A DNA stretch of 64,000 bases, taken from the NCBI RefSeq assembly GCF_003334255.1, contig NZ_QOWU01000001.1. One strand, written 5' to 3'. This document shows positions 1 through 39,752 of the stretch, in pieces (positions within the stretch are counted from its first letter, which is position 1; each line of letters opens with the position of its first letter). The translations under genes were made by a program, and so were the position numbers. The stretch comes from Escherichia coli (GTDB lineage Bacteria; Pseudomonadota; Gammaproteobacteria; Enterobacterales; Enterobacteriaceae). The notes under the pieces are model-generated. The model worked only from the letters and a program-made list of their open reading frames with translations. It was not told the origin of the DNA and made no database searches.

Positions 1-744
1 GAAGTTCCCGGTGCCGCAGAAACTATCCTGCGCCAGCTGGAACATTACGGTCTGCACTGGGACGGCGATGTTCTCTGGCAATCGCAACGTCACGACGCCT
101 ATCGTGAAGCACTCGCCTGGTTACATGAACAAGGACTAAGTTATTACTGCACCTGTACGCGTGCGCGTATTCAAAGCATTGGCGGTATTTACGACGGTCA
201 TTGCCGGGTGTTGCATCATGGACCAGACAACGCCGCAGTGCGTATCCGCCAGCAGCATCCGGTCACGCAATTTACTGACCAGCTGCGCGGCATTATTCAC
301 GCCGACGAAAAACTGGCACGGGAAGATTTTATCATTCATCGCCGTGATGGGTTGTTCGCCTACAACCTGGCTGTTGTGGTTGATGATCATTTCCAGGGCG
401 TTACAGAAATAGTGCGTGGGGCTGATCTGATTGAACCAACAGTAAGGCAAATCTCGCTGTACCAGCTTTTTGGCTGGAAAGTGCCAGATTACATTCATCT
501 GCCGCTGGCGCTTAATCCACAAGGCGCTAAACTTTCCAAGCAGAATCATGCGCCTGCGTTGCCGAAAGGCGATCCACGCCCGGTACTAATCGCGGCACTT
601 CAATTTCTGGGGCAGCAGGCAGAAGCACACTGGCAGGATTTCAGCGTCGAGCAAATCCTTCAGTCAGCCGTCAAAAACTGGCGGCTTACCGCCGTGCCCG
701 AGTCGGCAATTGTAAATTCAACATTCTCAAATGCGTCATGCTGA
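1..744 (+). CDS. gluQ: glutamyl-Q tRNA(Asp) synthetase, 5' end truncated by window edge
   Basis: Frame 1 is open from position 1 to TGA at 742-744; translation matches what I recall of E. coli GluQ (YadB); lies immediately upstream of pcnB as in E. coli. Confidence 0.85.
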
Positions 745-803
745 GCTATGATTAGCCGCTATTTTTTTGTCCTGAATGATGTTTGACACTACCGAGGTGT
801 ACT

Positions 804-2201
804 ATTTTTACCCGAGTCGCTAATTTTTGCCGCAAGGTGCTAAGCCGCGAGGAAAGCGAGGCTGAACAGGCAGTCGCCCGTCCACAGGTGACGGTGATCC
901 CGCGTGAGCAGCATGCTATTTCCCGCAAAGATATCAGTGAAAATGCCCTGAAGGTAATGTACAGGCTCAATAAAGCGGGATACGAAGCCTGGCTGGTTGG
1001 CGGCGGCGTGCGCGACCTGTTACTTGGCAAAAAGCCGAAAGATTTTGACGTAACCACTAACGCCACGCCTGAGCAGGTGCGCAAACTGTTCCGTAACTGC
1101 CGCCTGGTGGGTCGCCGTTTCCGTCTGGCTCATGTAATGTTTGGCCCGGAGATTATCGAAGTTGCGACCTTCCGTGGACACCACGAAGGTAACGTCAGCG
1201 ACCGCACGACCTCCCAACGCGGGCAAAACGGCATGTTGCTGCGCGACAACATTTTCGGCTCCATCGAAGAAGACGCCCAGCGCCGCGATTTCACTATCAA
1301 CAGCCTGTATTACAGCGTAGCGGATTTTACCGTCCGTGATTACGTTGGCGGCATGAAGGATCTGAAGGACGGCGTTATCCGTCTGATTGGTAACCCGGAA
1401 ACGCGCTACCGTGAAGATCCGGTACGTATGCTGCGCGCGGTACGTTTTGCCGCCAAATTGGGTATGCGCATCAGCCCGGAAACCGCAGAACCGATCCCTC
1501 GCCTCGCTACCCTGCTGAACGATATCCCACCGGCACGCCTGTTTGAAGAATCGCTTAAACTGCTACAAGCGGGCTACGGTTACGAAACCTATAAGCTGTT
1601 GTGTGAATATCATCTGTTCCAGCCGCTGTTCCCGACCATTACCCGCTACTTCACGGAAAATGGCGACAGCCCGATGGAGCGGATCATTGAACAGGTGCTG
1701 AAGAATACCGATACGCGTATCCATAACGATATGCGCGTGAACCCGGCGTTCCTGTTTGCCGCCATGTTCTGGTACCCACTGCTGGAGACGGCACAGAAGA
1801 TCGCCCAGGAAAGCGGCCTGACCTATCACGACGCTTTCGCGCTGGCGATGAACGACGTGCTGGACGAAGCCTGCCGTTCACTGGCAATCCCGAAACGTCT
1901 GACGACATTAACCCGCGATATCTGGCAGTTGCAGTTGCGTATGTCCCGTCGTCAGGGTAAACGCGCATGGAAACTGCTGGAGCATCCTAAGTTCCGTGCG
2001 GCTTATGACCTGTTGGCCTTGCGAGCTGAAGTTGAGCGTAACGCTGAACTGCAGCGTCTGGTGAAATGGTGGGGTGAGTTCCAGGTTTCCGCGCCACCAG
2101 ACCAAAAAGGGATGCTCAACGAGCTGGATGAAGAACCGTCACCGCGTCGTCGTACTCGTCGTCCACGCAAACGCGCACCACGTCGTGAGGGTACCGCATG
2201 A
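804..2201 (+). CDS. pcnB: poly(A) polymerase I
   Basis: Translation [22 protein letters not shown]... matches PcnB. The track ORF starts at a TTG at 783, but the recognised N-terminus begins at the ATT codon 804-806, preceded by GAGG at 794-797. Stop TGA at 2199-2201. Confidence 0.9.
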
Positions 2202-2677
2202 CAGTGGCGTATATTGCCATAGGCAGCAATCTGGCCTCTCCGCTGGAGCAGGTCAATGCTGCCCTGAAAGCATTAGGCGATATCCCTGAAAGCCACATTC
2301 TTACCGTTTCTTCGTTTTACCGCACCCCACCGCTGGGGCCGCAAGATCAACCCGATTACTTAAACGCAGCCGTGGCGCTGGAAACCTCTCTTGCACCTGA
2401 AGAGCTACTCAATCACACACAGCGTATTGAATTGCAGCAAGGTCGCGTCCGCAAAGCTGAACGCTGGGGACCACGCACGCTGGATCTCGACATCATGCTG
2501 TTTGGTAATGAAGTGATAAATACTGAACGCCTGACCGTTCCGCACTACGATATGAAGAATCGTGGATTTATGCTGTGGCCGCTGTTTGAAATCGCGCCGG
2601 AGTTGGTGTTTCCTGATGGGGAGATGTTGCGTCAAATCTTACATACAAGAGCATTTGACAAATTAAACAAATGGTAA
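2198..2677 (+). CDS. folK: 2-amino-4-hydroxy-6-hydroxymethyldihydropteridine pyrophosphokinase (HPPK)
   Basis: 159 aa, [19 protein letters not shown]... matches FolK; ATG at 2198 overlaps the pcnB stop (ATGA). Confidence 0.93.
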
Positions 2678-3046
2678 TTTATTTATATTGCGAATATAAA
2701 TATTTTCTGAAAATCATATCTCATCTCTTTCCTTAATTACGATTTTAGTTTAAACATCTCTTTGCGGAAATAATATAACTTCCTATAAATAAATATCAAT
2801 CCCATCTCCATACCCTAACCAATTGCACTTGTGAACTTATTTTTACTTAATTTTGAATTAAGTAAATTTAATTTGTTCAAAAGCTTCTAAAGTGCACAAT
2901 AGGCGACCTAATGAACAATGGTTGTAAATTTGGGTAACAAATATCATTGCTCATTAATATCTAACATTTGTTTCTCCTATTTGTGTCATGAATAGTCATT
3001 CTTCAAACATGTAGTCTGACTAATGGAATTTTATTAAAGGATTTTT

Positions 3047-3631
3047 ATGTCTAAAAAATTAGGTTTTGCCCTGTCTGGTCTTATGCTGGCGATGGTTGCA
3101 GGTACTGCTTCTGCTGATATGGACGGCGGTCAGTTAAATATCAGTGGTCTGGTTGTTGATAACACCTGTGAAACCCGCGTTGACGGCGGTAACAAGGATG
3201 GTCTGATCCTGCTGCAAACCGCAACCGTTGGTGAAATCGATGCTGGCGTACTGAATGACACCGTTGGCGCTAAAGCTAAACCTTTCAGCATCACCGTTGA
3301 CTGCAGCAAAGCAAATCCGAATCCAGGTAGCACGGCTAAAATGACCTTCGGTTCTGTTTTCTTTGGTAACAGCAAAGGGACTTTGAACAACGACATGTCT
3401 ATTAACAACCCATCTGACGGCGTTAATATCGCTCTACACAATATTGATGGTTCCACTATCAAACAGGTTCAAATTAACAACCCTGGCGATGTGTATACTA
3501 AAGCCCTGGATGCAACGACAAAATCTGCTGTTTATGATTTTAAAGCGTCTTACGTTCGTGCCGTCGCAGACCAAACAGCAACTGCTGGTTATGTAAAAAC
3601 TAACACTGCATACACCATTACTTATCAGTAA
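3047..3631 (+). CDS. yadN: fimbrial major subunit-like protein, chaperone-usher family
   Basis: 194 aa with N-terminal signal peptide ([23 protein letters not shown]) and fimbrial subunit-like C-terminus; first gene of the yad fimbrial operon. Confidence 0.85.
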
Positions 3632-3728
3632 GTATTCACCAGTTAAATTGATTGAATGAATATACAGGGAATAATAATTTCTATTTTATATTATTCCCTG
3701 TTTTAATTAACTCTATCAGGGATGGTTT

Positions 3729-4469
3729 ATGTTTTTTAACACCAAACATACAACAGCTTTATGCTTCGTAACCTGTATGGCTTTTAGTTCATCGTCTATT
3801 GCGGACATTGTCATTTCGGGTACTCGCGTAATATATAAAAGCGATCAAAAAAGTGTCAACGTACGTCTGGAAAATAAAGGGAATAACCCGTTGCTTGTCC
3901 AGAGTTGGTTAGATACTGGCGATGACAACGCTGAGCCTGGCAGTATTACAGTCCCTTTTACTGCTACGCCGCCAGTATCGCGTATTGATGCCAAACGTGG
4001 GCAAACAATCAAATTAATGTACACAGCCAGCACCTCACTGCCTAAAGACAGAGAGAGCGTGTTCTGGTTTAACGTACTGGAAGTTCCACCAAAACCAGAT
4101 GCAGAAAAGGTCGCGAATCAAAGCCTGCTGCAACTGGCATTTCGCACACGTATAAAACTTTTCTATCGCCCGGATGGATTGAAGGGAAATCCCTCTGAAG
4201 CCCCGTTAGCCCTGAAGTGGTTCTGGTCAGGTTCAGAAGGTAAGGCGTCATTACGAGTGACCAATCCAACCCCTTACTACGTCTCTTTTAGCAGTGGTGA
4301 TTTAGAAGCTAGCGGTAAACGCTATCCGATTGATGTGAAAATGATTGCACCATTTAGTGATGAGGTCATGAAAGTCAATGGCCTTAATGGCAAAGCGAAT
4401 TCTGCAAAAGTGCATTTTTACGCCATTAATGACTTTGGTGGCGCAATTGAAGGTAATGCCAGGCTGTAA
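3729..4469 (+). CDS. yadV: periplasmic fimbrial chaperone (PapD-like)
   Basis: 246 aa, signal peptide then PapD-family chaperone-like sequence; also known as ecpD in older K-12 annotation. Confidence 0.85.
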   Translation: MFFNTKHTTALCFVTCMAFSSSSIADIVISGTRVIYKSDQKSVNVRLENKGNNPLLVQSWLDTGDDNAEPGSITVPFTATPPVSRIDAKRGQTIKLMYTASTSLPKDRESVFWFNVLEVPPKPDAEKVANQSLLQLAFRTRIKLFYRPDGLKGNPSEAPLALKWFWSGSEGKASLRVTNPTPYYVSFSSGDLEASGKRYPIDVKMIAPFSDEVMKVNGLNGKANSAKVHFYAINDFGGAIEGNARL

Positions 4470-4503
4470 TCAGGCAAGGATATAATTCCGCAGGAAGCAT
4501 AGC

Positions 4504-7101
4504 GTGACTATAGAATATACTAAAAATTATCATCATCTGACCCGTATCGCCACGTTTTGCGCGCTGCTGTATTGCAATACTGCTTTCAGTGCTGAACTCG
4601 TTGAATATGACCATACCTTCCTGATGGGGCAGAATGCATCTAATATTGATCTCAGCCGGTACAGTGAAGGTAACCCCGCTATACCGGGTGTTTACGACGT
4701 CAGTGTTTATGTAAACGACCAACCAATCATTAACCAAAGTATTACATTTGTCGCAATTGAAGGAAAAAAGAACGCCCAGGCTTGTATCACATTAAAGAAT
4801 TTATTGCAGTTTCATATTAATTCTCCCGATATAAATAACGAAAAAGCCGTTCTGCTTGCCAGGGATGAAACGCTCGGCAATTGCCTCAATTTGACGGAAA
4901 TTATCCCTCAGGCTTCTGTTCGTTATGACGTTAACGATCAACGTCTGGATATAGACGTTCCTCAAGCCTGGGTAATGAAAAATTACCAAAACTATGTTGA
5001 TCCATCGTTATGGGAAAACGGCATTAATGCGGCCATGTTGTCATACAACCTCAACGGATATCATAGTGAAACCCCTGGTCGAAAAAATGAAAGCATTTAT
5101 GCTGCATTTAACGGTGGGATGAATTTAGGTGCATGGCGACTGCGTGCCTCGGGCAACTACAACTGGATGACCGATTCTGGCAGTAATTATGATTTTAAGA
5201 ATCGGTATGTTCAGCGTGATATCGCCTCGCTGCGTTCTCAACTCATTCTTGGTGAGTCTTATACGACGGGCGAAACCTTTGATTCCGTCAGTATCCGAGG
5301 CATTCGTTTATACAGTGACAGCCGCATGTTGCCTCCGACTTTAGCCAGCTTTGCGCCTATCATTCATGGCGTTGCCAATACCAACGCCAAAGTCACTATT
5401 ACGCAAGGTGGCTATAAGATTTATGAAACGACGGTGCCGCCAGGCGCTTTCGTCATTGATGATCTGAGTCCGTCAGGGTACGGCAGCGAGCTTATTGTTA
5501 CCATCGAAGAATCCGATGGCTCAAAGCGGACATTCTCGCAACCTTTCTCATCCGTTGTTCAAATGTTACGCCCTGGCGTTGGACGTTGGGATATTAGCGG
5601 CGGTCAGGTCTTAAAAGATGATATTCAGGATGAGCCTAATTTATTTCAAGCAAGCTACTACTACGGCCTGAATAACTATCTGACGGGTTATACCGGTATT
5701 CAGATAACCGATAATAACTATACCGCTGGTTTGTTAGGTCTTGGTCTGAATACTTCAGTTGGTGCATTTTCTTTCGATGTGACTCATTCCAATGTTCGTA
5801 TCCCGGATGATAAAACATACCAGGGGCAAAGTTATCGTGTTTCCTGGAACAAGTTATTCGAAGAAACAAGTACTTCACTGAATATCGCGGCCTATCGCTA
5901 TTCGACACAGAATTACCTTGGTCTTAATGATGCACTAACTCTAATTGATGAAGTGAAACATCCCGAACAAGATCTTGAACCGAAATCCATGCGTAATTAC
6001 TCACGCATGAAAAATCAGGTTACGGTCAGTATTAACCAACCGTTGAAATTTGAGAAAAAAGATTACGGTTCATTTTATCTTTCCGGAAGTTGGTCCGATT
6101 ACTGGGCTTCCGGACAAAATCGTAGCAATTACTCTATTGGCTACAGTAACAGTACATCCTGGGGCAGCTACAGTGTCAGTGCCCAGCGTTCATGGAATGA
6201 AGACGGCGACACTGACGATAGCGTTTATCTTAGTTTCACCATTCCAATTGAAAAATTACTTGGCACTGAACAACGTACTTCAGGTTTCCAGAGTATTGAT
6301 ACTCAAATAAGCAGTGACTTTAAGGGTAATAACCAACTCAACGTTAGCAGCAGTGGCTATAGCGATAACGCTCGCGTCAGTTATAGCGTGAATACTGGCT
6401 ATACGATGAATAAAGCCAGCAAAGATTTGAGTTATGTTGGGGGTTATGCCAGCTATGAGTCACCATTGGGAACGCTGGCAGGTTCAATTTCTGCAAATAG
6501 CGATAACAGCCGTCAAGTTTCTCTCAGCACCGACGGTGGTTTTGTATTGCATAGCGGTGGACTGACTTTCAGTAATGATAGTTTTAGCGACTCCGATACA
6601 CTGGCGGTAGTTCAGGCTCCAGGTGCTCAAGGAGCGCGAATAAATTATGGCAACAGTACTATCGATCGATGGGGTTATGGTGTCACCAGCGCTCTTTCTC
6701 CTTATCATGAAAACCGTATCGCGCTGGATATCAACGATCTTGAGAACGATGTTGAATTAAAAAGTACCAGTGCAGTAGCTGTACCGCGTCAGGGTTCAGT
6801 CGTCTTTGCTGATTTTGAAACCGTGCAAGGGCAATCAGCCATTATGAACATCACACGAAGTGATGGTAAAAATATTCCATTTGCTGCAGATATTTATGAT
6901 GAGCAAGGCAATGTCATTGGTAATGTTGGACAGGGTGGACAAGCATTTGTTCGTGGTATTGAGCAGCAGGGAAATATCAGCATTAAATGGCTCGAACAAA
7001 GTAAACCCGTAAGTTGTCTTGCGCATTATCAACAAAGCCCAGAAGCAGAAAAAATAGCACAATCTATTATTCTGAATGGAATTCGGTGTCAGATTCAGTA
7101 A
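4504..7101 (+). CDS. htrE: outer-membrane fimbrial usher protein
   Basis: 865 aa, GTG start, usher size and domain order, rich in beta-strand Y/G/S/N composition; sits between chaperone and minor subunit genes. Confidence 0.88.
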   Translation: MTIEYTKNYHHLTRIATFCALLYCNTAFSAELVEYDHTFLMGQNASNIDLSRYSEGNPAIPGVYDVSVYVNDQPIINQSITFVAIEGKKNAQACITLKNLLQFHINSPDINNEKAVLLARDETLGNCLNLTEIIPQASVRYDVNDQRLDIDVPQAWVMKNYQNYVDPSLWENGINAAMLSYNLNGYHSETPGRKNESIYAAFNGGMNLGAWRLRASGNYNWMTDSGSNYDFKNRYVQRDIASLRSQLILGESYTTGETFDSVSIRGIRLYSDSRMLPPTLASFAPIIHGVANTNAKVTITQGGYKIYETTVPPGAFVIDDLSPSGYGSELIVTIEESDGSKRTFSQPFSSVVQMLRPGVGRWDISGGQVLKDDIQDEPNLFQASYYYGLNNYLTGYTGIQITDNNYTAGLLGLGLNTSVGAFSFDVTHSNVRIPDDKTYQGQSYRVSWNKLFEETSTSLNIAAYRYSTQNYLGLNDALTLIDEVKHPEQDLEPKSMRNYSRMKNQVTVSINQPLKFEKKDYGSFYLSGSWSDYWASGQNRSNYSIGYSNSTSWGSYSVSAQRSWNEDGDTDDSVYLSFTIPIEKLLGTEQRTSGFQSIDTQISSDFKGNNQLNVSSSGYSDNARVSYSVNTGYTMNKASKDLSYVGGYASYESPLGTLAGSISANSDNSRQVSLSTDGGFVLHSGGLTFSNDSFSDSDTLAVVQAPGAQGARINYGNSTIDRWGYGVTSALSPYHENRIALDINDLENDVELKSTSAVAVPRQGSVVFADFETVQGQSAIMNITRSDGKNIPFAADIYDEQGNVIGNVGQGGQAFVRGIEQQGNISIKWLEQSKPVSCLAHYQQSPEAEKIAQSIILNGIRCQIQ

Positions 7102-7117
7102 CTACAAGGGACGTCAA

Positions 7118-7687
7118 ATGATAAAAACAACGCCACATAAAATAGTGATACTGATGGGAATATTATTATCACCCTCAGTATTTGCAACGGATATTAATGT
7201 AGAGTTTACAGCCACTGTCAAAGCGACAACCTGTAACATCACACTTACTGGTAATAACGTCACGAATGATGGCAATAATAACTACACATTGAGAATCCCT
7301 AAGATGGGTCTGGATAAGATCGCGAATAAAACGACAGAATCTCAGGCTGATTTTAAACTGGTTGCCAGTGGGTGCAGCAGTGGCATCAGTTGGATTGATA
7401 CCACTCTGACCGGAAATGCATCATCAAGCTCACCTAAGCTTATTATACCGCAGTCTGGTGATTCATCTTCGACGACAAGTAATATCGGTATGGGTTTCAA
7501 AAAACGGACTACTGATGATGCCACTTTCCTTAAACCTAACAGTGCGGAAAAGATACGCTGGAGCACAGACGAGATGCAGCCCGATAAGGGTCTTGAAATG
7601 ACCGTTGCGCTACGTGAAACAGATGCAGGGCAAGGCGTACCGGGGAATTTTCGTGCACTGGCGACGTTTAATTTCATCTATCAATAA
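7118..7687 (+). CDS. yadM: fimbrial subunit-like protein
   Basis: Track ORF begins at 7076, but the N-terminus MIKTTPHKIVILMGILLSPSVFA with RBS AAGGGA at 7106-7111 gives start 7118 (189 aa). Confidence 0.8.
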   Translation: MIKTTPHKIVILMGILLSPSVFATDINVEFTATVKATTCNITLTGNNVTNDGNNNYTLRIPKMGLDKIANKTTESQADFKLVASGCSSGISWIDTTLTGNASSSSPKLIIPQSGDSSSTTSNIGMGFKKRTTDDATFLKPNSAEKIRWSTDEMQPDKGLEMTVALRETDAGQGVPGNFRALATFNFIYQ

Positions 7688-7698
7688 GAAGGATAATT

Positions 7699-8304
7699 AT
7701 GATGACATTTAAAAATTTACGTTATGGATTATCCAGCAGTGTCGTTTTGGCTGCCTCATTGTTCAGCGTACTCTCTTATGCGGCAACAGACAGTATTGGA
7801 CTGACCGTTATTACTACTGTAGAAATGGGTACTTGTACCGCTACATTAGTAAATGACTCTGATCAGGACATTTCTGTTGTTGATTTTGGTGATGTATATA
7901 TTTCTGAAATCAATGCCAAGACCAAAGTAAAAACATTCAAACTCAAATTCAAAGACTGTGCGGGTATCCCCAATAAAAAAGCGCAAATAAAATTAACCAA
8001 GCGAGCCACATGCGAGGGAACTGCTAATGACGGTGCGGGGTTTGCAAATGGTTCCACAGCCGCAGATAAAGCAAGTGCTGTCGCCGTTGAAGTCTGGAGC
8101 ACTGTAACTCCGGCAACAGGGAGTGCAACACAATTTAGCTGTGTAACACCAGCATCACAAGAGGTAACAATCTCCACTGCAGCCAATGCGGTCGTTTATT
8201 ATCCGATGAGTGCACGCCTGGTCGTGGAAAAAAATAAAACCGTAAACAATGTCACTGCGGGTAAGTTTTCTGCACCAGCCACATTTACAGTAACCTATAA
8301 CTAA
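7699..8304 (+). CDS. yadL: fimbrial subunit-like protein
   Basis: 201 aa, signal peptide, fimbrial subunit-like; position in operon. Confidence 0.8.
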   Translation: MMTFKNLRYGLSSSVVLAASLFSVLSYAATDSIGLTVITTVEMGTCTATLVNDSDQDISVVDFGDVYISEINAKTKVKTFKLKFKDCAGIPNKKAQIKLTKRATCEGTANDGAGFANGSTAADKASAVAVEVWSTVTPATGSATQFSCVTPASQEVTISTAANAVVYYPMSARLVVEKNKTVNNVTAGKFSAPATFTVTYN

Positions 8305-8330
8305 CAGACTTACAGATTCAGGAACTATAT

Positions 8331-8927
8331 ATGCATCCCACTCAACGTAAGCTGATGAAGAGAATAATTCTGTTTCTGTCATTACTGTTTTGCATCGCCT
8401 GTCCAGCCATTGCTGGACAGGATATTGACCTTGTTGCCAATGTAAAAAACAGCACCTGCAAAAGCGGAATCAGTAACCAGGGTAATATTGATCTTGGCGT
8501 CGTTGGGGTGGGATATTTTTCAGGTAATGTTACTCCTGAAAGTTATCAACCAGGTGGAAAAGAGTTCACTATCACTGTATCCGACTGTGCATTACAGGGA
8601 ACTGGCGATGTGCTAAATCAGTTACATATTGATTTTAGAGCCCTTAGCGGTGTCATGGCTGCTGGCTCTAGGCAAATATTTGCTAATGAAATTTCGTCAG
8701 GAGCAAGTAATGTAGGAGTAGTTATATTTTCTACTCAGGATTCGGCGAATACATTCAATGTTCTTAATGCTTCAGGCGGATCTCGTTCCGTTTATCCAGT
8801 AATGTCGGATGACATGAATGGTTCATCCTGGAAATTTAGCACCCGAATGCAAAAAATCGATCCTGCATTGAGTGTTACATCTGGTCAACTTATGAGCCAT
8901 GTGTTAGTGGATATTTACTACGAATAA
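8331..8927 (+). CDS. yadK: fimbrial subunit-like protein
   Basis: 198 aa, signal peptide, fimbrial subunit-like. Confidence 0.8.
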   Translation: MHPTQRKLMKRIILFLSLLFCIACPAIAGQDIDLVANVKNSTCKSGISNQGNIDLGVVGVGYFSGNVTPESYQPGGKEFTITVSDCALQGTGDVLNQLHIDFRALSGVMAAGSRQIFANEISSGASNVGVVIFSTQDSANTFNVLNASGGSRSVYPVMSDDMNGSSWKFSTRMQKIDPALSVTSGQLMSHVLVDIYYE

Positions 8928-8976
8928 CAAACAAAAACAGCGCAAACCATAACAATAAAGAAACATTGGAGTAAAA

Positions 8977-10215
8977 ATGAAGACTATCTTCAGGTACATT
9001 CTTTTTTTAGCACTGTATTCTTGTTGTAATACAGTCAGTGCATATACAAGTTTTATTGTGGGAAATAATGCAGGAGTTGATAACTATCGAGGCCCCTCCA
9101 CTGCCGCACAGATGACCTTTAATTACACATCAACAGCAAGCAACTTGGTTTTTTATAAACCCACGCAGCTCGGCCCGACTGGGGTAAAAATGTACTGGTC
9201 ATACCTGGATACAGGTACCGGTGGTGGTATTCTTTACTGCAATACATCTGGCAGAGCGAATCCTGGTCCAATAACTATTGAAAATGCCATGGTCTATTCA
9301 GGTAAAGATTATGGCGGACATAAACTATTTAATACATCTGTTCCTGGTCTGTATTACACCATGTTAATATCAAGGGTCTGGTCTGCATACGATACAATAA
9401 CTGACATTCAATCGCCAGGAATCTATATCGGAGATCCTTCCAACCAAGAATTTTTCTTTTCCGTCACAGACAGCGATCTACAAACTAAGGGTTGCAACAA
9501 AGCAGACGACTACGATAAGTTTTGGGCTATTGGTGGTATAGTACACAACATAACTGTTGAATTTTATACAGATACTAATTTCGATCCTACACTTAATCAG
9601 CAAGTCCAGTTATCCAGTTCATCAAATTACCTTTATTCGTTTAAGGCCTACAGTCCTGGTACAAAAGTTGTAGATCACAGCAACCACATTTATGTCAATT
9701 TCACACTGAATAATGTCAAATTAACCTTACCAACATGTTTTACCTCCATACTTACCGGGCCATCAGTCAATGGTTCAACGGTTAGAATGGGAGAATATAG
9801 CTCTGGGACAATTAAAAATGGCGCTTCACCTGTTCCCTTTGATATCTCGCTTCAGAATTGTATTCGTGTGCGTAATATTGAAACAAAACTCGTCACTGGA
9901 AAAGTAGGTACTCAAAACACACAACTGCTTGGTAATACGCTTACTGGAAGCACTGCCGCCAAAGGCGTTGGCGTACTCATTGAAGGTTTAGCAACCAGTA
10001 AAAATCCGCTAATGACATTAAAACCTAATGATACGAATTCTGTTTATATAGATTATGAAACCGAAGATGACACCTCCGATGGGGTTTACCCTAATCAAGG
10101 TAACGGCACATCACAGCCTCTTCATTTCCAGGCAACATTAAAGCAAGACGGGAATATTGCTATCGAACCCGGCGAATTTAAAGCCACCAGTACTTTCCAG
10201 GTAACCTATCCCTGA
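8977..10215 (+). CDS. yadC: fimbrial tip adhesin-like protein
   Basis: 412 aa two-domain protein (putative N-terminal lectin domain plus C-terminal pilin domain) ending the operon; followed by a 12-bp-stem inverted repeat. Confidence 0.8.
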
Positions 10216-10219
10216 TAAC

Positions 10220-10254
10220 GTAGCAGCACTGTCACCTTCTGGCAGTGCTGCTAC
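10220..10254 (+). terminator. stem-loop after yadC (possible operon terminator)
   Basis: Perfect 12-bp inverted repeat gtagcagcactg / cagtgctgctac with 11-nt loop, 5 nt after the yadC stop; no strong T-run follows. Confidence 0.4.
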
Positions 10255-10328
10255 GGATAAATCATTGCCCCCACCAATGTGACTGATAAAATGCCAGACA
10301 GCACAACATCAATTTATCAGGATACGTT

Positions 10329-11123
10329 ATGAAACCGACCACCATCTCCTTACTGCAGAAGTACAAACAGGAAAAAAAACGTTTCGCGACCATCACCGCT
10401 TATGACTATAGCTTCGCCAAACTCTTTGCTGATGAAGGGCTTAACGTCATGCTGGTGGGCGATTCGCTGGGCATGACGGTTCAGGGGCACGACTCCACCC
10501 TGCCAGTTACCGTTGCCGATATCGCCTACCACACTGCCGCCGTACGTCGCGGCGCACCAAACTGCCTGCTGCTGGCTGACCTGCCGTTTATGGCGTATGC
10601 CACGCCGGAACAAGCCTTCGAAAACGCCGCAACGGTTATGCGTGCCGGTGCTAACATGGTCAAAATTGAAGGCGGTGAGTGGCTGGTAGAAACCGTACAA
10701 ATGCTGACCGAACGTGCCGTTCCTGTATGTGGTCACTTAGGTTTAACACCACAGTCAGTGAATATTTTCGGTGGCTACAAAGTTCAGGGGCGCGGCGATG
10801 AAGCGGGCGATCAACTGCTCAGCGATGCATTAGCCTTAGAAGCTGCTGGGGCACAGCTGCTGGTGCTGGAATGCGTGCCGGTTGAACTGGCAAAACGTAT
10901 TACCGAAGCACTGGCGAGCCCGGTTATTGGCATTGGCGCAGGCAACGTCACTGACGGGCAGATCCTCGTGATGCACGACGCCTTTGGTATTACCGGCGGT
11001 CACATTCCTAAATTCGCTAAAAATTTCCTCGCCGAAACGGGCGACATCCGCGCGGCTGTGCGGCAGTATATGGCTGAAGTGGAGTCCGGCGTTTATCCGG
11101 GCGAAGAACACAGTTTCCATTAA
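10329..11123 (+). CDS. panB: 3-methyl-2-oxobutanoate hydroxymethyltransferase
   Basis: 264 aa, [57 protein letters not shown]... matches PanB. Confidence 0.95.
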
Positions 11124-11134
11124 GGAGTCACGTT

Positions 11135-37073: not shown

Positions 37074-37838
37074 CTAATTCTTTCGTTGCTCCAGACGACG
37101 CAGAGAACGCTCACGGCGGCTCTCTTCACGACTTCTGTCGAGCAAAATTTCTTCGATAAAGGCCAGATGGCGATGCGATGCTTCGCGCGCTTCTTCCGGC
37201 TTACCGGCCATAATCGCTTCAAATATGCGGGTGCGGTGACTACTCACCAGCGGCAGCATCTCGCGACGCGAATAGAGCAATTCGAAGTTCTGGCGGACAT
37301 TCTGGGCCAACATCGGCTCCATACACCTTAGCAGATGAAGCAGAACCACATTGTGGGCCGCTTCGGTGACGGCAATCTGATACTGGAGTACGGCGTTTGA
37401 TTCCGCGTCCAGATCGCCAGACTGCTGCGCCAGCTCTATGGCGTGGTGGAGTTCACGGATGCGTTCCTTGTCTTCATCGGTACTACGCAGCGCGGCGTAA
37501 TAAGCGGCGATACCTTCCAGGGCGTGTCGTGTTTCGAGCAAGTCATACTGTGACTCAGGATGGTCGGAGAGCAGCTCCACCAGCGGATCGCTGAAGCTTT
37601 GCCATAGGCTGCTCTGGACAAAAGTGCCGCCACCCTGGCGACGAAGCAACAAGCCCTTCGCTTCGAGACGTTGAATCGCCTCACGCAAGGAGGGACGGGA
37701 GACGTCAAACTGTTTTGCCAGTTCGCGTTCCGGTGGGAGTTTTTCGCCCGGGCGGAGAGTGCCTTCGAGGATCAAAAACTCCAGTTGCTGCTCAATCACA
37801 TCGGAGAGTTTTGGTTGGCGGATTTTGCTGTAGGCCAT
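37074..37838 (-). CDS. pdhR: GntR-family transcriptional repressor of the pdhR-aceEF-lpd operon
   Basis: Trimmed to [54 protein letters not shown] (254 aa), ATG confirmed at 37836-37838; winged-HTH GntR N-terminus. Confidence 0.93.
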
Positions 37839-37869
37839 GAGTTCCTGTCTTAAGCCACTTGCCGAAGTC

Positions 37870-37886
37870 AATTGGTCTTACCAATT
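37870..37886. promoter_or_regulatory. PdhR operator (auto-regulatory site in the pdhR promoter)
   Basis: Perfect palindrome AATTGGTCTTACCAATT about 32 bp upstream of the pdhR start codon; matches the GntR-family/PdhR box as I recall it (ATTGGT...ACCAAT). Confidence 0.75.
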
Positions 37887-38290
37887 TCATGTCTGTGACG
37901 CTAAAGTAACAAAGTATTCACCTTATGTCCATACAGGTTTTGATTGAAATCATGAAACTGTGCACATTTTAACAACTTGACATATATAACGTTTCAAAGT
38001 TGTAACTATGCACAAATGTAGACTTTACGTAGGAAAGGAGTTTTTTAACGATTATTAAACTATAAAAATCCGAATTGAACCGATTCACTTACCAATTTTG
38101 TGATTTTTAATTCAATTAAAACGAATTTAAATTCATTCTACATATTGAGAGGGGTTGAGGCTGAGCTTTACAAACGGTTTCTTTTTAAGCAACTCATCTT
38201 CAACCATGCATAAAGCGGGTGCATTCGCTGCCGCATACCATTATTCTTGATCTGACGGAAGTCTTTTTGTAACAATTCAAACTTCTTTGA

Positions 38291-38308
38291 TGTAAACAAA
38301 TTAATACA
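38291..38308 (+). promoter_or_regulatory. TyrR box-like site upstream of aroP
   Basis: TGTAAAcaaattAATACA resembles the TyrR box consensus TGTAAA-N6-TTTACA; about 70 bp upstream of the aroP start. Confidence 0.5.
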
Positions 38309-38378
38309 ACAAACGGAATTGCAAACTTACACACGCATCACTGCGTAGATCAAAAAAACAACCACCGCACGAGGTTTC

Positions 38379-39752
38379 ATGATGGAAGGTCAACAGCACG
38401 GCGAGCAGCTAAAGCGCGGCCTTAAAAACCGCCATATTCAGCTTATCGCGCTGGGTGGCGCGATAGGGACCGGGTTATTCCTGGGTAGCGCCTCCGTAAT
38501 ACAGTCCGCAGGGCCAGGGATTATCCTGGGTTACGCCATTGCTGGTTTTATCGCCTTTCTGATCATGCGTCAGCTGGGTGAAATGGTGGTCGAAGAACCT
38601 GTCGCAGGCTCCTTTAGCCACTTTGCTTATAAATACTGGGGCAGTTTTGCCGGTTTCGCCTCTGGCTGGAACTACTGGGTACTGTACGTTTTAGTTGCCA
38701 TGGCTGAGCTGACTGCCGTGGGTAAATACATTCAGTTCTGGTATCCGGAAATCCCCACCTGGGTTTCTGCCGCCGTATTCTTTGTGGTGATTAACGCCAT
38801 CAACCTGACCAACGTTAAAGTGTTTGGCGAGATGGAGTTCTGGTTTGCCATTATCAAAGTTATCGCGGTGGTAGCGATGATCATCTTCGGCGGCTGGCTG
38901 CTATTCAGTGGCAACGGCGGCCCGCAGGCGACCGTTAGCAACCTGTGGGATCAGGGTGGTTTCCTGCCGCACGGCTTCACCGGGCTGGTGATGATGATGG
39001 CGATTATCATGTTCTCGTTCGGTGGTCTGGAACTGGTGGGGATCACCGCAGCAGAAGCTGATAACCCGGAGCAAAGTATACCGAAAGCAACTAACCAGGT
39101 TATCTACCGCATCCTGATTTTCTATATTGGTTCGTTAGCCGTTCTGCTCTCACTGATGCCGTGGACCCGCGTTACCGCCGATACCAGTCCGTTTGTGCTG
39201 ATCTTCCACGAGTTAGGCGATACCTTTGTGGCGAATGCGCTGAACATCGTGGTACTGACTGCGGCGCTCTCCGTGTACAACAGCTGCGTATATTGCAACA
39301 GCCGTATGCTGTTTGGTCTGGCACAACAGGGTAATGCGCCAAAAGCGCTGGCGTCTGTCGATAAACGTGGTGTACCAGTAAATACCATTCTGGTGTCTGC
39401 ACTGGTAACGGCGTTGTGCGTACTGATTAACTACCTTGCCCCAGAGTCCGCTTTCGGACTGTTAATGGCGCTGGTGGTATCTGCACTGGTAATCAACTGG
39501 GCGATGATTAGCCTGGCGCATATGAAATTCCGTCGCGCCAAGCAGGAACAAGGCGTGGTAACTCGCTTCCCTGCTCTGCTTTATCCGCTGGGTAACTGGA
39601 TCTGCCTGCTGTTTATGGCGGCGGTACTGGTGATTATGCTGATGACCCCAGGAATGGCGATTTCGGTATACCTGATCCCGGTATGGCTGATCGTGTTAGG
39701 TATCGGCTATCTGTTTAAAGAGAAAACCGCCAAAGCCGTAAAAGCGCATTAA
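38379..39752 (+). CDS. aroP: aromatic amino acid:H+ symporter (APC family)
   Basis: 457 aa, 12 predicted hydrophobic helices, MMEGQQHGEQLKRGLKNRHIQLIALGGAIGTGLFLG.... Confidence 0.93.
   Translation: MMEGQQHGEQLKRGLKNRHIQLIALGGAIGTGLFLGSASVIQSAGPGIILGYAIAGFIAFLIMRQLGEMVVEEPVAGSFSHFAYKYWGSFAGFASGWNYWVLYVLVAMAELTAVGKYIQFWYPEIPTWVSAAVFFVVINAINLTNVKVFGEMEFWFAIIKVIAVVAMIIFGGWLLFSGNGGPQATVSNLWDQGGFLPHGFTGLVMMMAIIMFSFGGLELVGITAAEADNPEQSIPKATNQVIYRILIFYIGSLAVLLSLMPWTRVTADTSPFVLIFHELGDTFVANALNIVVLTAALSVYNSCVYCNSRMLFGLAQQGNAPKALASVDKRGVPVNTILVSALVTALCVLINYLAPESAFGLLMALVVSALVINWAMISLAHMKFRRAKQEQGVVTRFPALLYPLGNWICLLFMAAVLVIMLMTPGMAISVYLIPVWLIVLGIGYLFKEKTAKAVKAH

Follow-up and report, generated by a model that had tools for sequence, protein, structure and literature searches.

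Positions 2678–10255 of the Escherichia coli DNA analyzed here (contig NZ_QOWU01000001.1; the whole stretch of 64,000 nucleotides is termed the window) hold a seven-gene chaperone-usher fimbrial operon between folK and panB. We are highly confident that this is the K-12-type yadN-yadV/ecpD-htrE-yadM-yadL-yadK-yadC operon, an H-NS-silenced, AT-rich cassette of ancient insertion, and that the transcript design, fiber assembly and cassette exchange proposed below apply to it. The literature already covers the operon, its silencing by H-NS, its AT-rich leader (a 'promoter island') and how variable its adhesin YadC is. The evidence presented here identifies the folK-panB interval as a cassette-exchange locus common to several Enterobacteriaceae genera, which extends, and does not change, the published picture of yad allelic variation (PMC13245861).

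Identity, composition and silencing of the yad operon

The open reading frame (ORF) list of the window contains seven co-oriented plus-strand ORFs between folK (2198–2677) and panB (10329–11123), which RefSeq names yadN, yadV, htrE, yadM, yadL, yadK and yadC both in a near-identical genome (100.0% by BLAST) and in MG1655. Megablast of 2400–10400 against 5,426 complete E. coli genomes returned many chromosomes at 100% identity. Only three substitutions, at 5490 and 6467 in htrE and at 10918 in panB, separate the window from MG1655 (b0134–b0142) over the 8926 bases of 2198–11123. Thus, the strain is K-12-like and not MG1655 itself. A window position x converts to the MG1655 coordinate 159930 − x. 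The genes, with the evidence for each, are:

3047–3631, plus strand: yadN, major fimbrial subunit (Pfam Fimbrial PF00419, E = 9.8e-12; RefSeq annotation)
3729–4469, plus strand: yadV (ecpD), periplasmic PapD-like chaperone (NCBIfam NF007398 equivalog, full length, 472 bits versus a cut-off of 285)
4504–7101, plus strand: htrE, outer-membrane usher (NCBIfam NF007337 equivalog, residues 3–865 of 865, 1696 bits versus a cut-off of 830)
7118–7687, plus strand: yadM, minor fimbrial subunit (Pfam Fimbrial PF00419, E = 1.6e-25; annotated start 7118)
7699–8304, plus strand: yadL, minor fimbrial subunit (NCBIfam NF011795 YadL equivalog, 447.7 bits versus a cut-off of 392)
8331–8927, plus strand: yadK, minor fimbrial subunit (NCBIfam NF011794, 310.8 bits versus a cut-off of 132)
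8977–10215, plus strand: yadC, two-domain tip adhesin (NCBIfam NF007268, 884.6 bits versus a cut-off of 382)

All seven ORFs are intact and match their family models at or near full length. The chaperone, usher, pilins and two-domain adhesin of a Yad-type chaperone-usher operon are present, as is yad-locus identity. A reading made earlier from the sequence alone (the sequence-only reading) had proposed a seven-gene yad operon between folK and panB, and the MG1655 match and family models bear this out. Within YadC, Pfam Fimbrial PF00419 covers only residues 265–411, the C-terminal pilin domain; the N-terminal part (roughly 240–260 residues, the lectin domain as described in PMC13245861) matched no Pfam family, and a Protein Data Bank (PDB) sequence search with YadC gave no relative of solved structure. 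An alternative in-frame yadM ATG lies at 7076 and would overlap the end of htrE (7101).

Base composition sets the operon apart from its surroundings. The island has 41.7% GC versus 51.0% for the window, of which it is the lowest-GC 7.2-kb stretch, and yad coding sequences range from 40 to 45% GC versus 50–56% for pcnB, folK, panB and panC. GC at third codon positions (GC3) is 0.34–0.41 in the seven yad genes versus 57% in other long ORFs, or 4.6–6.6 standard deviations below the mean of the 33 other long ORFs of the window. Codon usage, scored as similarity to these 33 ORFs in place of a standard codon adaptation index, gave low values for most yad genes, the exception being yadN, which is core-gene-like despite a GC3 of 0.41. 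The leader has exactly the length of 369 bp (2678–3046) that the sequence-only reading had assigned to it and, at 26.6% GC, is the lowest of any 369-bp stretch in the 64-kb window. Sliding GC and codon analyses therefore agree with the prediction that leader and coding sequence are AT-richer than the flanks; composition is not uniform across the boundaries. Below 45% GC the window has just one further 1-kb stretch, 37501–38500; coordinate mapping suggests that it is the region between aroP and pdhR, likewise catalogued as a 'promoter island' (121694_343) in PMC3661553.

Silencing by H-NS, also predicted from the sequence, is borne out in K-12 and in extraintestinal pathogenic E. coli (ExPEC) by published de-repression in hns deletion mutants and by chromatin immunoprecipitation (ChIP). 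A PyadN reporter increases more than 100-fold in CFT073 Δhns (Ellison et al. 2026, PMC13245861). Quantitative reverse transcription PCR (qRT-PCR) shows up-regulation of all seven yad genes in Δhns derivatives of CFT073 and EC958, and ChIP-seq shows H-NS binding (PMC13245861). The same paper reports near-background yad expression under laboratory conditions, postulates an as-yet-unnamed regulator that antagonizes H-NS at yad, and is our source for earlier K-12 work on H-NS silencing and on temperature, oxygen and ArcA effects, given here as cited there. In K-12 Δhns, yadC is de-repressed and serves as an example of a horizontally transferred gene in an H-NS-dependent silenced chromatin domain (2025 Nature, PMC12460168). 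The yadN/folK intergenic region is 'promoter island' 156927_379, linked to H-NS and horizontally acquired genes (Table 1, PMC3661553). Furthermore, three ChIP data sets mark yadN as bound by H-NS, and its expression goes up 2.4-fold when SlyA is over-produced (PMC5797941). Functional Yad fibers, adhesion and in vivo fitness effects have been reported (PMC13245861, PMC5797941, PMC6921372). Reported YadC ligands are xylose/xylan and annexin A2, with the binding pocket undefined (PMC13245861, PMC6921372); an earlier description of the YadC receptor as poorly defined is thus out of date as to ligands and still holds for the binding site.

Site occupancy, island boundaries and cassette exchange

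To survey the site, one genome per bacterial species was scanned for FolK and the 10 kb downstream were inspected, which yielded 80 loci, two of them uninformative. In 66 of the 78 informative Enterobacteriaceae species the site is empty, and only 98–155 bp separate folK from panB; among these species are two Salmonella enterica subspecies, Klebsiella, Enterobacter, Kluyvera, Leclercia, Lelliottia, Kosakonia and most Citrobacter. A yad-like cassette of 7.4–9.0 kb occupies the site in 12 of the 78 (E. coli, E. whittamii, E. albertii, three Pseudocitrobacter, four Citrobacter, and Superficieibacter), and within E. coli it is present in the lineages examined, including O157. The predominance of empty sites fits insertion rather than vertical core ancestry.

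The island's limits can be placed precisely: the left one falls within the tail of folK and the right one at 10255/10258. Features at its two edges are:

2620–2677, plus strand: folK 3' tail, approximately the last 15–19 codons, AT-rich and hypervariable, the left edge of the variable block
10258–10328, plus strand: core sequence with the panB promoter region (promoter-like TTGCCC, 16 nt, TAAAAT with TG at 10265–10292)

At the left edge, identity to divergent E. coli lineages drops from 0.9–1.0 to 0.4–0.7 at about 2600–2640, inside folK, whose last 45 nt have 31% GC versus 53% for the preceding 300 nt. A FolK ending in ...AEKPA(H/S)W is conserved at empty sites and occupied sites carry unrelated tails, which in Yad-type E. 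coli are encoded by DNA of 16–38% GC. At the right edge, 10258–10328 aligns with the folK-panB spacer of operon-less Citrobacter, Salmonella and Klebsiella, which places the boundary at 10255–10258, directly after a hairpin (10219–10255) that is the last island-specific feature. The end coordinate of 10254 in the sequence-only reading matches the end of this hairpin. Around 10260–10300, identity is 0.9–1.0 among six Yad-type alleles and 0.43–0.70 in the O157 cassette. E. whittamii, two of the three Pseudocitrobacter and several Citrobacter (loci L010, L013, L020, L044, L049 and L054) carry AAAGGGCTAAC...CCCCTACAAT between the terminal hairpin and panB, a region unrelated to the panB promoter region of E. 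coli and of empty sites. Judged by this sequence, the right junction has been replaced too in those lineages, perhaps together with the panB promoter.

We compared the window with six other E. coli alleles by sliding identity in 200-nt windows. Flanks scored 0.85–1.0 (mostly at least 0.93), and the operon, where alignable, scored 0.36–1.0 in mosaic blocks. E. coli B showed 0.90–1.00 through most of yadK and 0.60–0.81 through the end of yadK and yadC. Strain razor3 showed 0.55 in the leader, 0.81–0.89 in yadN, 0.92–0.98 in the usher and minor subunits and 0.62–0.78 in yadC. The most variable gene is yadC, with 0.36–0.79 identity to other E. coli alleles per 200-nt window. The seven-gene cassette that O157:H7 carries at the same site is not alignable by megablast. 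In a neighbor-joining tree of ushers, the O157 allele groups with E. albertii (88.6% identity), far from K-12 (58%), and the usher of strain E69 branches deeply and separately, among those of Citrobacter, Pseudocitrobacter and Superficieibacter. Usher alleles of E. coli are therefore not monophyletic, which indicates cassette exchange: deeply diverged cassettes have been exchanged within and between species by recombination through conserved flanks.

Signatures of mobility were sought at the locus. The ORF list and RefSeq annotation contain no integrase or insertion sequence (IS) ORF in the island, no tRNA lies within 1–14000, and the longest flanking or junction repeat is 7 nt. Since the integrase or transposase, tRNA target and flanking direct repeats of a mobile genomic island were not found, the locus is not classed as one, and homologous recombination in the flanks best accounts for cassette exchange. 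Composition is AT-rich, the cassette is absent from the site in related taxa and the usher tree is discordant, as in a xenogeneic island. Horizontal acquisition, the origin originally favored for the operon, is thus supported by foreign composition, empty sites and polyphyletic ushers, with the qualification that the acquisition is old and the locus anchored.

Several alleles carry lesions. IS1 is inserted in yadC of BE104 and PEC411, and in AHM9C61I the match covers only folK, an IS1 element and panB. In ETEC4075 (L006, 17251–17869) a frameshift interrupts the yadL-like gene, and the annotation lists only six genes for subunits and assembly.

The survey also recorded a second, more distant yad-like chaperone-usher operon downstream of panC in 18 empty-site species (loci L019, L023, L024, L026–L028, L043, L045, L048, L050, L051, L055, L062, L063, L067, L070, L071 and L082), including Enterobacter, Klebsiella oxytoca, Citrobacter gillenii, C. 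youngae, Kluyvera ascorbata and Lelliottia. Its chaperone match lies about 3.1–3.7 kb downstream of the panB start, or about 1.4–2.0 kb past the end of panC, and its usher is 43–49% identical to HtrE. The counterpart position in E. coli holds rpnC (window 12060–12962). Operons of this fimbrial clade may have landed repeatedly in the neighborhood of the pan genes. Citrobacter sedlakii (L069, 10444–10599) has an empty site with an atypical FolK tail, ...EEKPERG, and a longer gap, of 155 bp, that may be the scar of a lost earlier cassette. In the assembly of the Firmicute Terrisporobacter mayombei DSM 6539 (L008), a 524-bp contig of 0.7x coverage encodes a FolK with 97% identity to the E. coli protein and is almost certainly a contaminant.

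Leader palindromes, RNA hairpins and the proposed mechanism

The leader contains two perfect inverted repeats and a conserved motif, and the operon two RNA hairpins. Their positions are:

2678–3046, plus strand: AT-rich leader and regulatory region (MG1655 156884–157252; overlaps 'promoter island' 156927_379 yadN/folK)
2680–2702, unstranded: inverted repeat 1, TATTTATATT-GCG-AATATAAATA, perfect 10-nt arms, directly after the folK stop codon
2692–2713, unstranded: motif GAATATAAATA(W)(W)TTC(Y)GAAAA, containing the right arm of inverted repeat 1
2842–2866, unstranded: inverted repeat 2, TTTACTTAATT-TTG-AATTAAGTAAA, perfect 11-nt arms, center 193 nt upstream of the yadN ATG
2930–2958, plus strand: candidate yadN promoter, −35 TTGGGT, 17-nt spacer, −10 ATTAAT, predicted from sequence and conserved alignment columns only
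3664–3704, plus strand: hairpin and U-tract between yadN and yadV, 13-bp stem (3664–3700) followed by UUUU
10219–10255, plus strand: GC-rich 16-bp hairpin lacking a U-tract, −29.7 kcal/mol, 3 nt past the yadC stop codon

A K-12-type leader (at least 80% query coverage) is present in 2946 of the 5426 complete E. coli genomes. Both inverted repeats had been noticed in the sequence-only reading and do exist; the first had been placed at about 2684–2704, which is 3–4 nt too far to the right, and the second at 2845–2863, which holds as a core within a larger palindrome. Together they exceed chance: among 5000 dinucleotide-preserving shuffles of the leader, the probability of finding one or more repeats whose arms reach 10 nt was 0.018, and that of finding two was 0.0002. 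In an alignment of seven leaders, the right arm of inverted repeat 1 is kept and the left arm is not in razor3, NC101 and ETEC4075. A role for this repeat as a folK terminator was ruled out because its RNA fold amounts to only −4.3 kcal/mol and its left arm is unconserved. The motif at 2692–2713 that includes the right arm hardly varies among six Yad-type E. coli leaders, amid surroundings only about 55% identical, and is also present in locus L009 and, with one mismatch, in C. werkmanii.

Inverted repeat 2 is a candidate protein-binding palindrome and is the only one of the two conserved as a palindrome in divergent Yad-type alleles. Its symmetry and outer spacing are retained in the leaders of E. 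coli B, Z226-1 and NC101; in NC101 both arms have changed together, to TTTACTAA...TTAGTAAA. It is shortened to arms of 5–6 nt in razor3 and ETEC4075. Neither repeat is recognizable in O157-type or other-genus leaders, which are equally AT-rich (26–32% GC). As read from the sequence, inverted repeat 2 contains no SlyA site of the form TTA-N6-TAA (motif from PMC5797941). Nor are the repeats those of a fim-type invertible switch: they are short palindromes with 3-nt loops and do not bound a segment, no recombinase gene adjoins the operon in the ORF list or annotation, and Yad is stated not to be phase-variable (PMC13245861). An Rfam search of 1–14000 returned only two chance-level matches, to a microRNA and a snoRNA family, and no known RNA family.

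Support is stronger for the two RNA hairpins than for the leader repeats. The whole intergenic fold between yadN and yadV reaches −24.9 kcal/mol and shows compensatory changes at 6 of its 13 pairs among seven alleles; nearly every occupied locus of other species has a hairpin of unrelated sequence at this position. It looks like an intrinsic terminator or attenuator and, by analogy with other fimbrial operons, probably sets the excess of major subunit via partial termination or mRNA stabilization. For the hairpin after yadC, the consensus of seven alleles predicts 11 pairs, of which four show compensatory changes and none is broken. A hairpin follows the adhesin gene in 15 of 16 examinable alleles, including those of other genera whose sequence is unrelated, with C. 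werkmanii having a weak stem only, and is absent from empty-site species. This hairpin is probably, again by analogy, a 3'-end element that stabilizes or terminates the transcript. A terminator scan missed both hairpins, one of which has a 12-nt loop and the other no U-tract.

From these features and the literature we propose the following scheme. As published work shows, H-NS coats the AT-rich leader and gene bodies and keeps the yadN promoter almost off in the laboratory, and loss of H-NS de-represses the whole operon. Partial induction also occurs in serum, during infection of tissue, at low temperature, without oxygen (via ArcA) and on over-production of SlyA. Operon anatomy suggests a single transcript starting in the last ~100 nt of the leader. 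The hairpin and U-tract after yadN would act as a partial terminator or stabilizer that keeps the major subunit in excess, and the hairpin after yadC would end or stabilize the message and insulate panB, which would retain its own ancestral promoter. By homology and published work, YadV is predicted to carry subunits to HtrE, which would build a YadN shaft with YadM, YadL and YadK as minor subunits and YadC at the tip. The variable N-terminal lectin domain of YadC would bind xylose-containing glycans and annexin A2.

Nothing we found contradicts identification of the yad operon, and the weak points are the inferred steps of this scheme, against which several results weigh. A consensus promoter scan gave no plus-strand site in the leader matching at least 9 of 12 positions, the combined promoter and terminator scan found neither class above shuffled expectation, and a search of the literature turned up no experimentally determined start site for yadN. 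The published H-NS nucleation 10-mer TCGATAAATT (two mismatches or fewer) is not enriched, occurring at 0.92 per kb in the island versus 1.03 per kb elsewhere and not at all in the leader; what supports H-NS binding here is thus overall AT-richness and ChIP from the literature, with no recognizable motif behind it. The probable attenuator role of the post-yadN hairpin rests on analogy with fimbrial operons and on structural conservation, and the post-yadC hairpin, lacking a U-tract, may not terminate alone. The best sigma-70-like matches are antisense: TTGATA-16-TATATT (2799–2770, minus strand) in the leader, directed toward folK, and TTGACA-18-TATATT (3859–3830, minus strand) inside yadV. As sequence matches, they would fit the spurious promoters described for H-NS-silenced AT-rich DNA.

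Two other views of the operon's history were weighed. It might be an ordinary, vertically inherited Escherichia core locus, AT-rich through selection on fimbrial genes and regulatory DNA. That a seven-gene cassette occupies the same site in the examined E. coli lineages, including O157, and in E. albertii and E. whittamii would agree with this, as would the core-like codon index of yadN and the lack of any integrase, IS element, tRNA or flanking repeat in the searches above. We nevertheless consider vertical inheritance improbable, given the 66 of 78 species in which folK and panB are separated by a short conserved spacer, patchy occupancy within Citrobacter, polyphyly of E. coli ushers with respect to E. 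albertii, Citrobacter and Pseudocitrobacter, and GC3 values far below those of other long ORFs of the window. An old horizontal insertion remains the preferred reading. The term 'cryptic' could also denote a decaying, non-functional remnant, to which near-background laboratory expression and the IS1 insertions, frameshifted subunit gene and operon deletion of some strains would lend color. We give this view almost no credence: here seven ORFs are intact with family matches at or near full length, RNA hairpins are maintained through compensatory change, and published constitutive-expression and infection experiments refute it.

A further alternative concerns the leader, where the inverted repeats could be operators of dimeric transcription factors, with inverted repeat 2 serving as a counter-silencer site. 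Arguing for this are the rarity of two such perfect repeats in shuffled leaders, conservation of symmetry and outer spacing of repeat 2 in divergent leaders, with change in both NC101 arms, and the H-NS-antagonizing regulator postulated in PMC13245861. Arguing against it are the unconserved left arm of repeat 1, decay of repeat 2 to 5–6-nt arms in razor3 and ETEC4075 and its absence from O157-type and other-genus leaders, the missing TTA-N6-TAA site, and the lack of a regulator gene within the operon; moreover, symmetry of this kind may arise, with no dedicated factor involved, from AT-rich DNA whose shape serves H-NS bridging or curvature. On balance we regard operators as possible and rather unlikely. 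Slightly more doubtful is the specific suggestion that palindrome 2842–2866 may be the operator of a regulator relieving H-NS silencing of yad on serum or host cues; the motif GAATATAAATA..TTCYGAAAA (2692–2713) could be a second element of the same counter-silencing switch. Palindrome 2842–2866, motif 2692–2713, the post-yadN hairpin and U-tract, and the terminal hairpin are attractive leads for work on Yad regulation.

Comparison with known fimbrial systems

Yad of K-12 MG1655 (b0135–b0141) has the same locus, gene order, flanks and leader as the operon described here and differs in nothing substantive. ExPEC Yad of phylogroup B2 (CFT073, EC958, NC101-type) shares the site, seven-gene architecture, both RNA hairpins and the AT-rich leader. 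It differs in sequence: nucleotide identity is about 80% for the operon as a whole, about 57% for the leader and about 60–79% for yadC, and the ExPEC YadC lectin domain differs from that of K-12 (PMC13245861). The cassette of O157:H7 and E. albertii likewise comprises seven co-oriented chaperone-usher genes at the same site, preceded by an AT-rich leader, and a hairpin follows the gene for the major subunit. However, its usher is 58% identical to K-12 HtrE, and its shorter adhesin gene (1110 nt) has no tblastn match with YadC.

Outside Yad, the best NCBIfam matches are to Salmonella Sta (StaA–G), pairing YadN with StaA, YadM with StaD and YadL with StaE. These sequence matches point to the same usher clade and gene order as Yad; they fall below curated cut-offs, so Yad and Sta are not equivalogs. 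Neither of the two Salmonella subspecies sampled has a cassette at the folK-panB site. Type 1 and P fimbriae are controlled by an invertible switch or methylation-dependent phase variation, whereas Yad is reported to have neither (PMC13245861). Similar in behavior are other cryptic chaperone-usher operons of K-12 (among them sfm, elf/ycb and yeh), which are likewise AT-rich, H-NS-bound and poorly expressed in the laboratory, yet work once their expression is forced (PMC3661553, PMC5797941). The region upstream of sfmA, like that of yadN, is listed as a 'promoter island' (PMC3661553). These operons differ from Yad in occupying other loci and carrying other adhesins.

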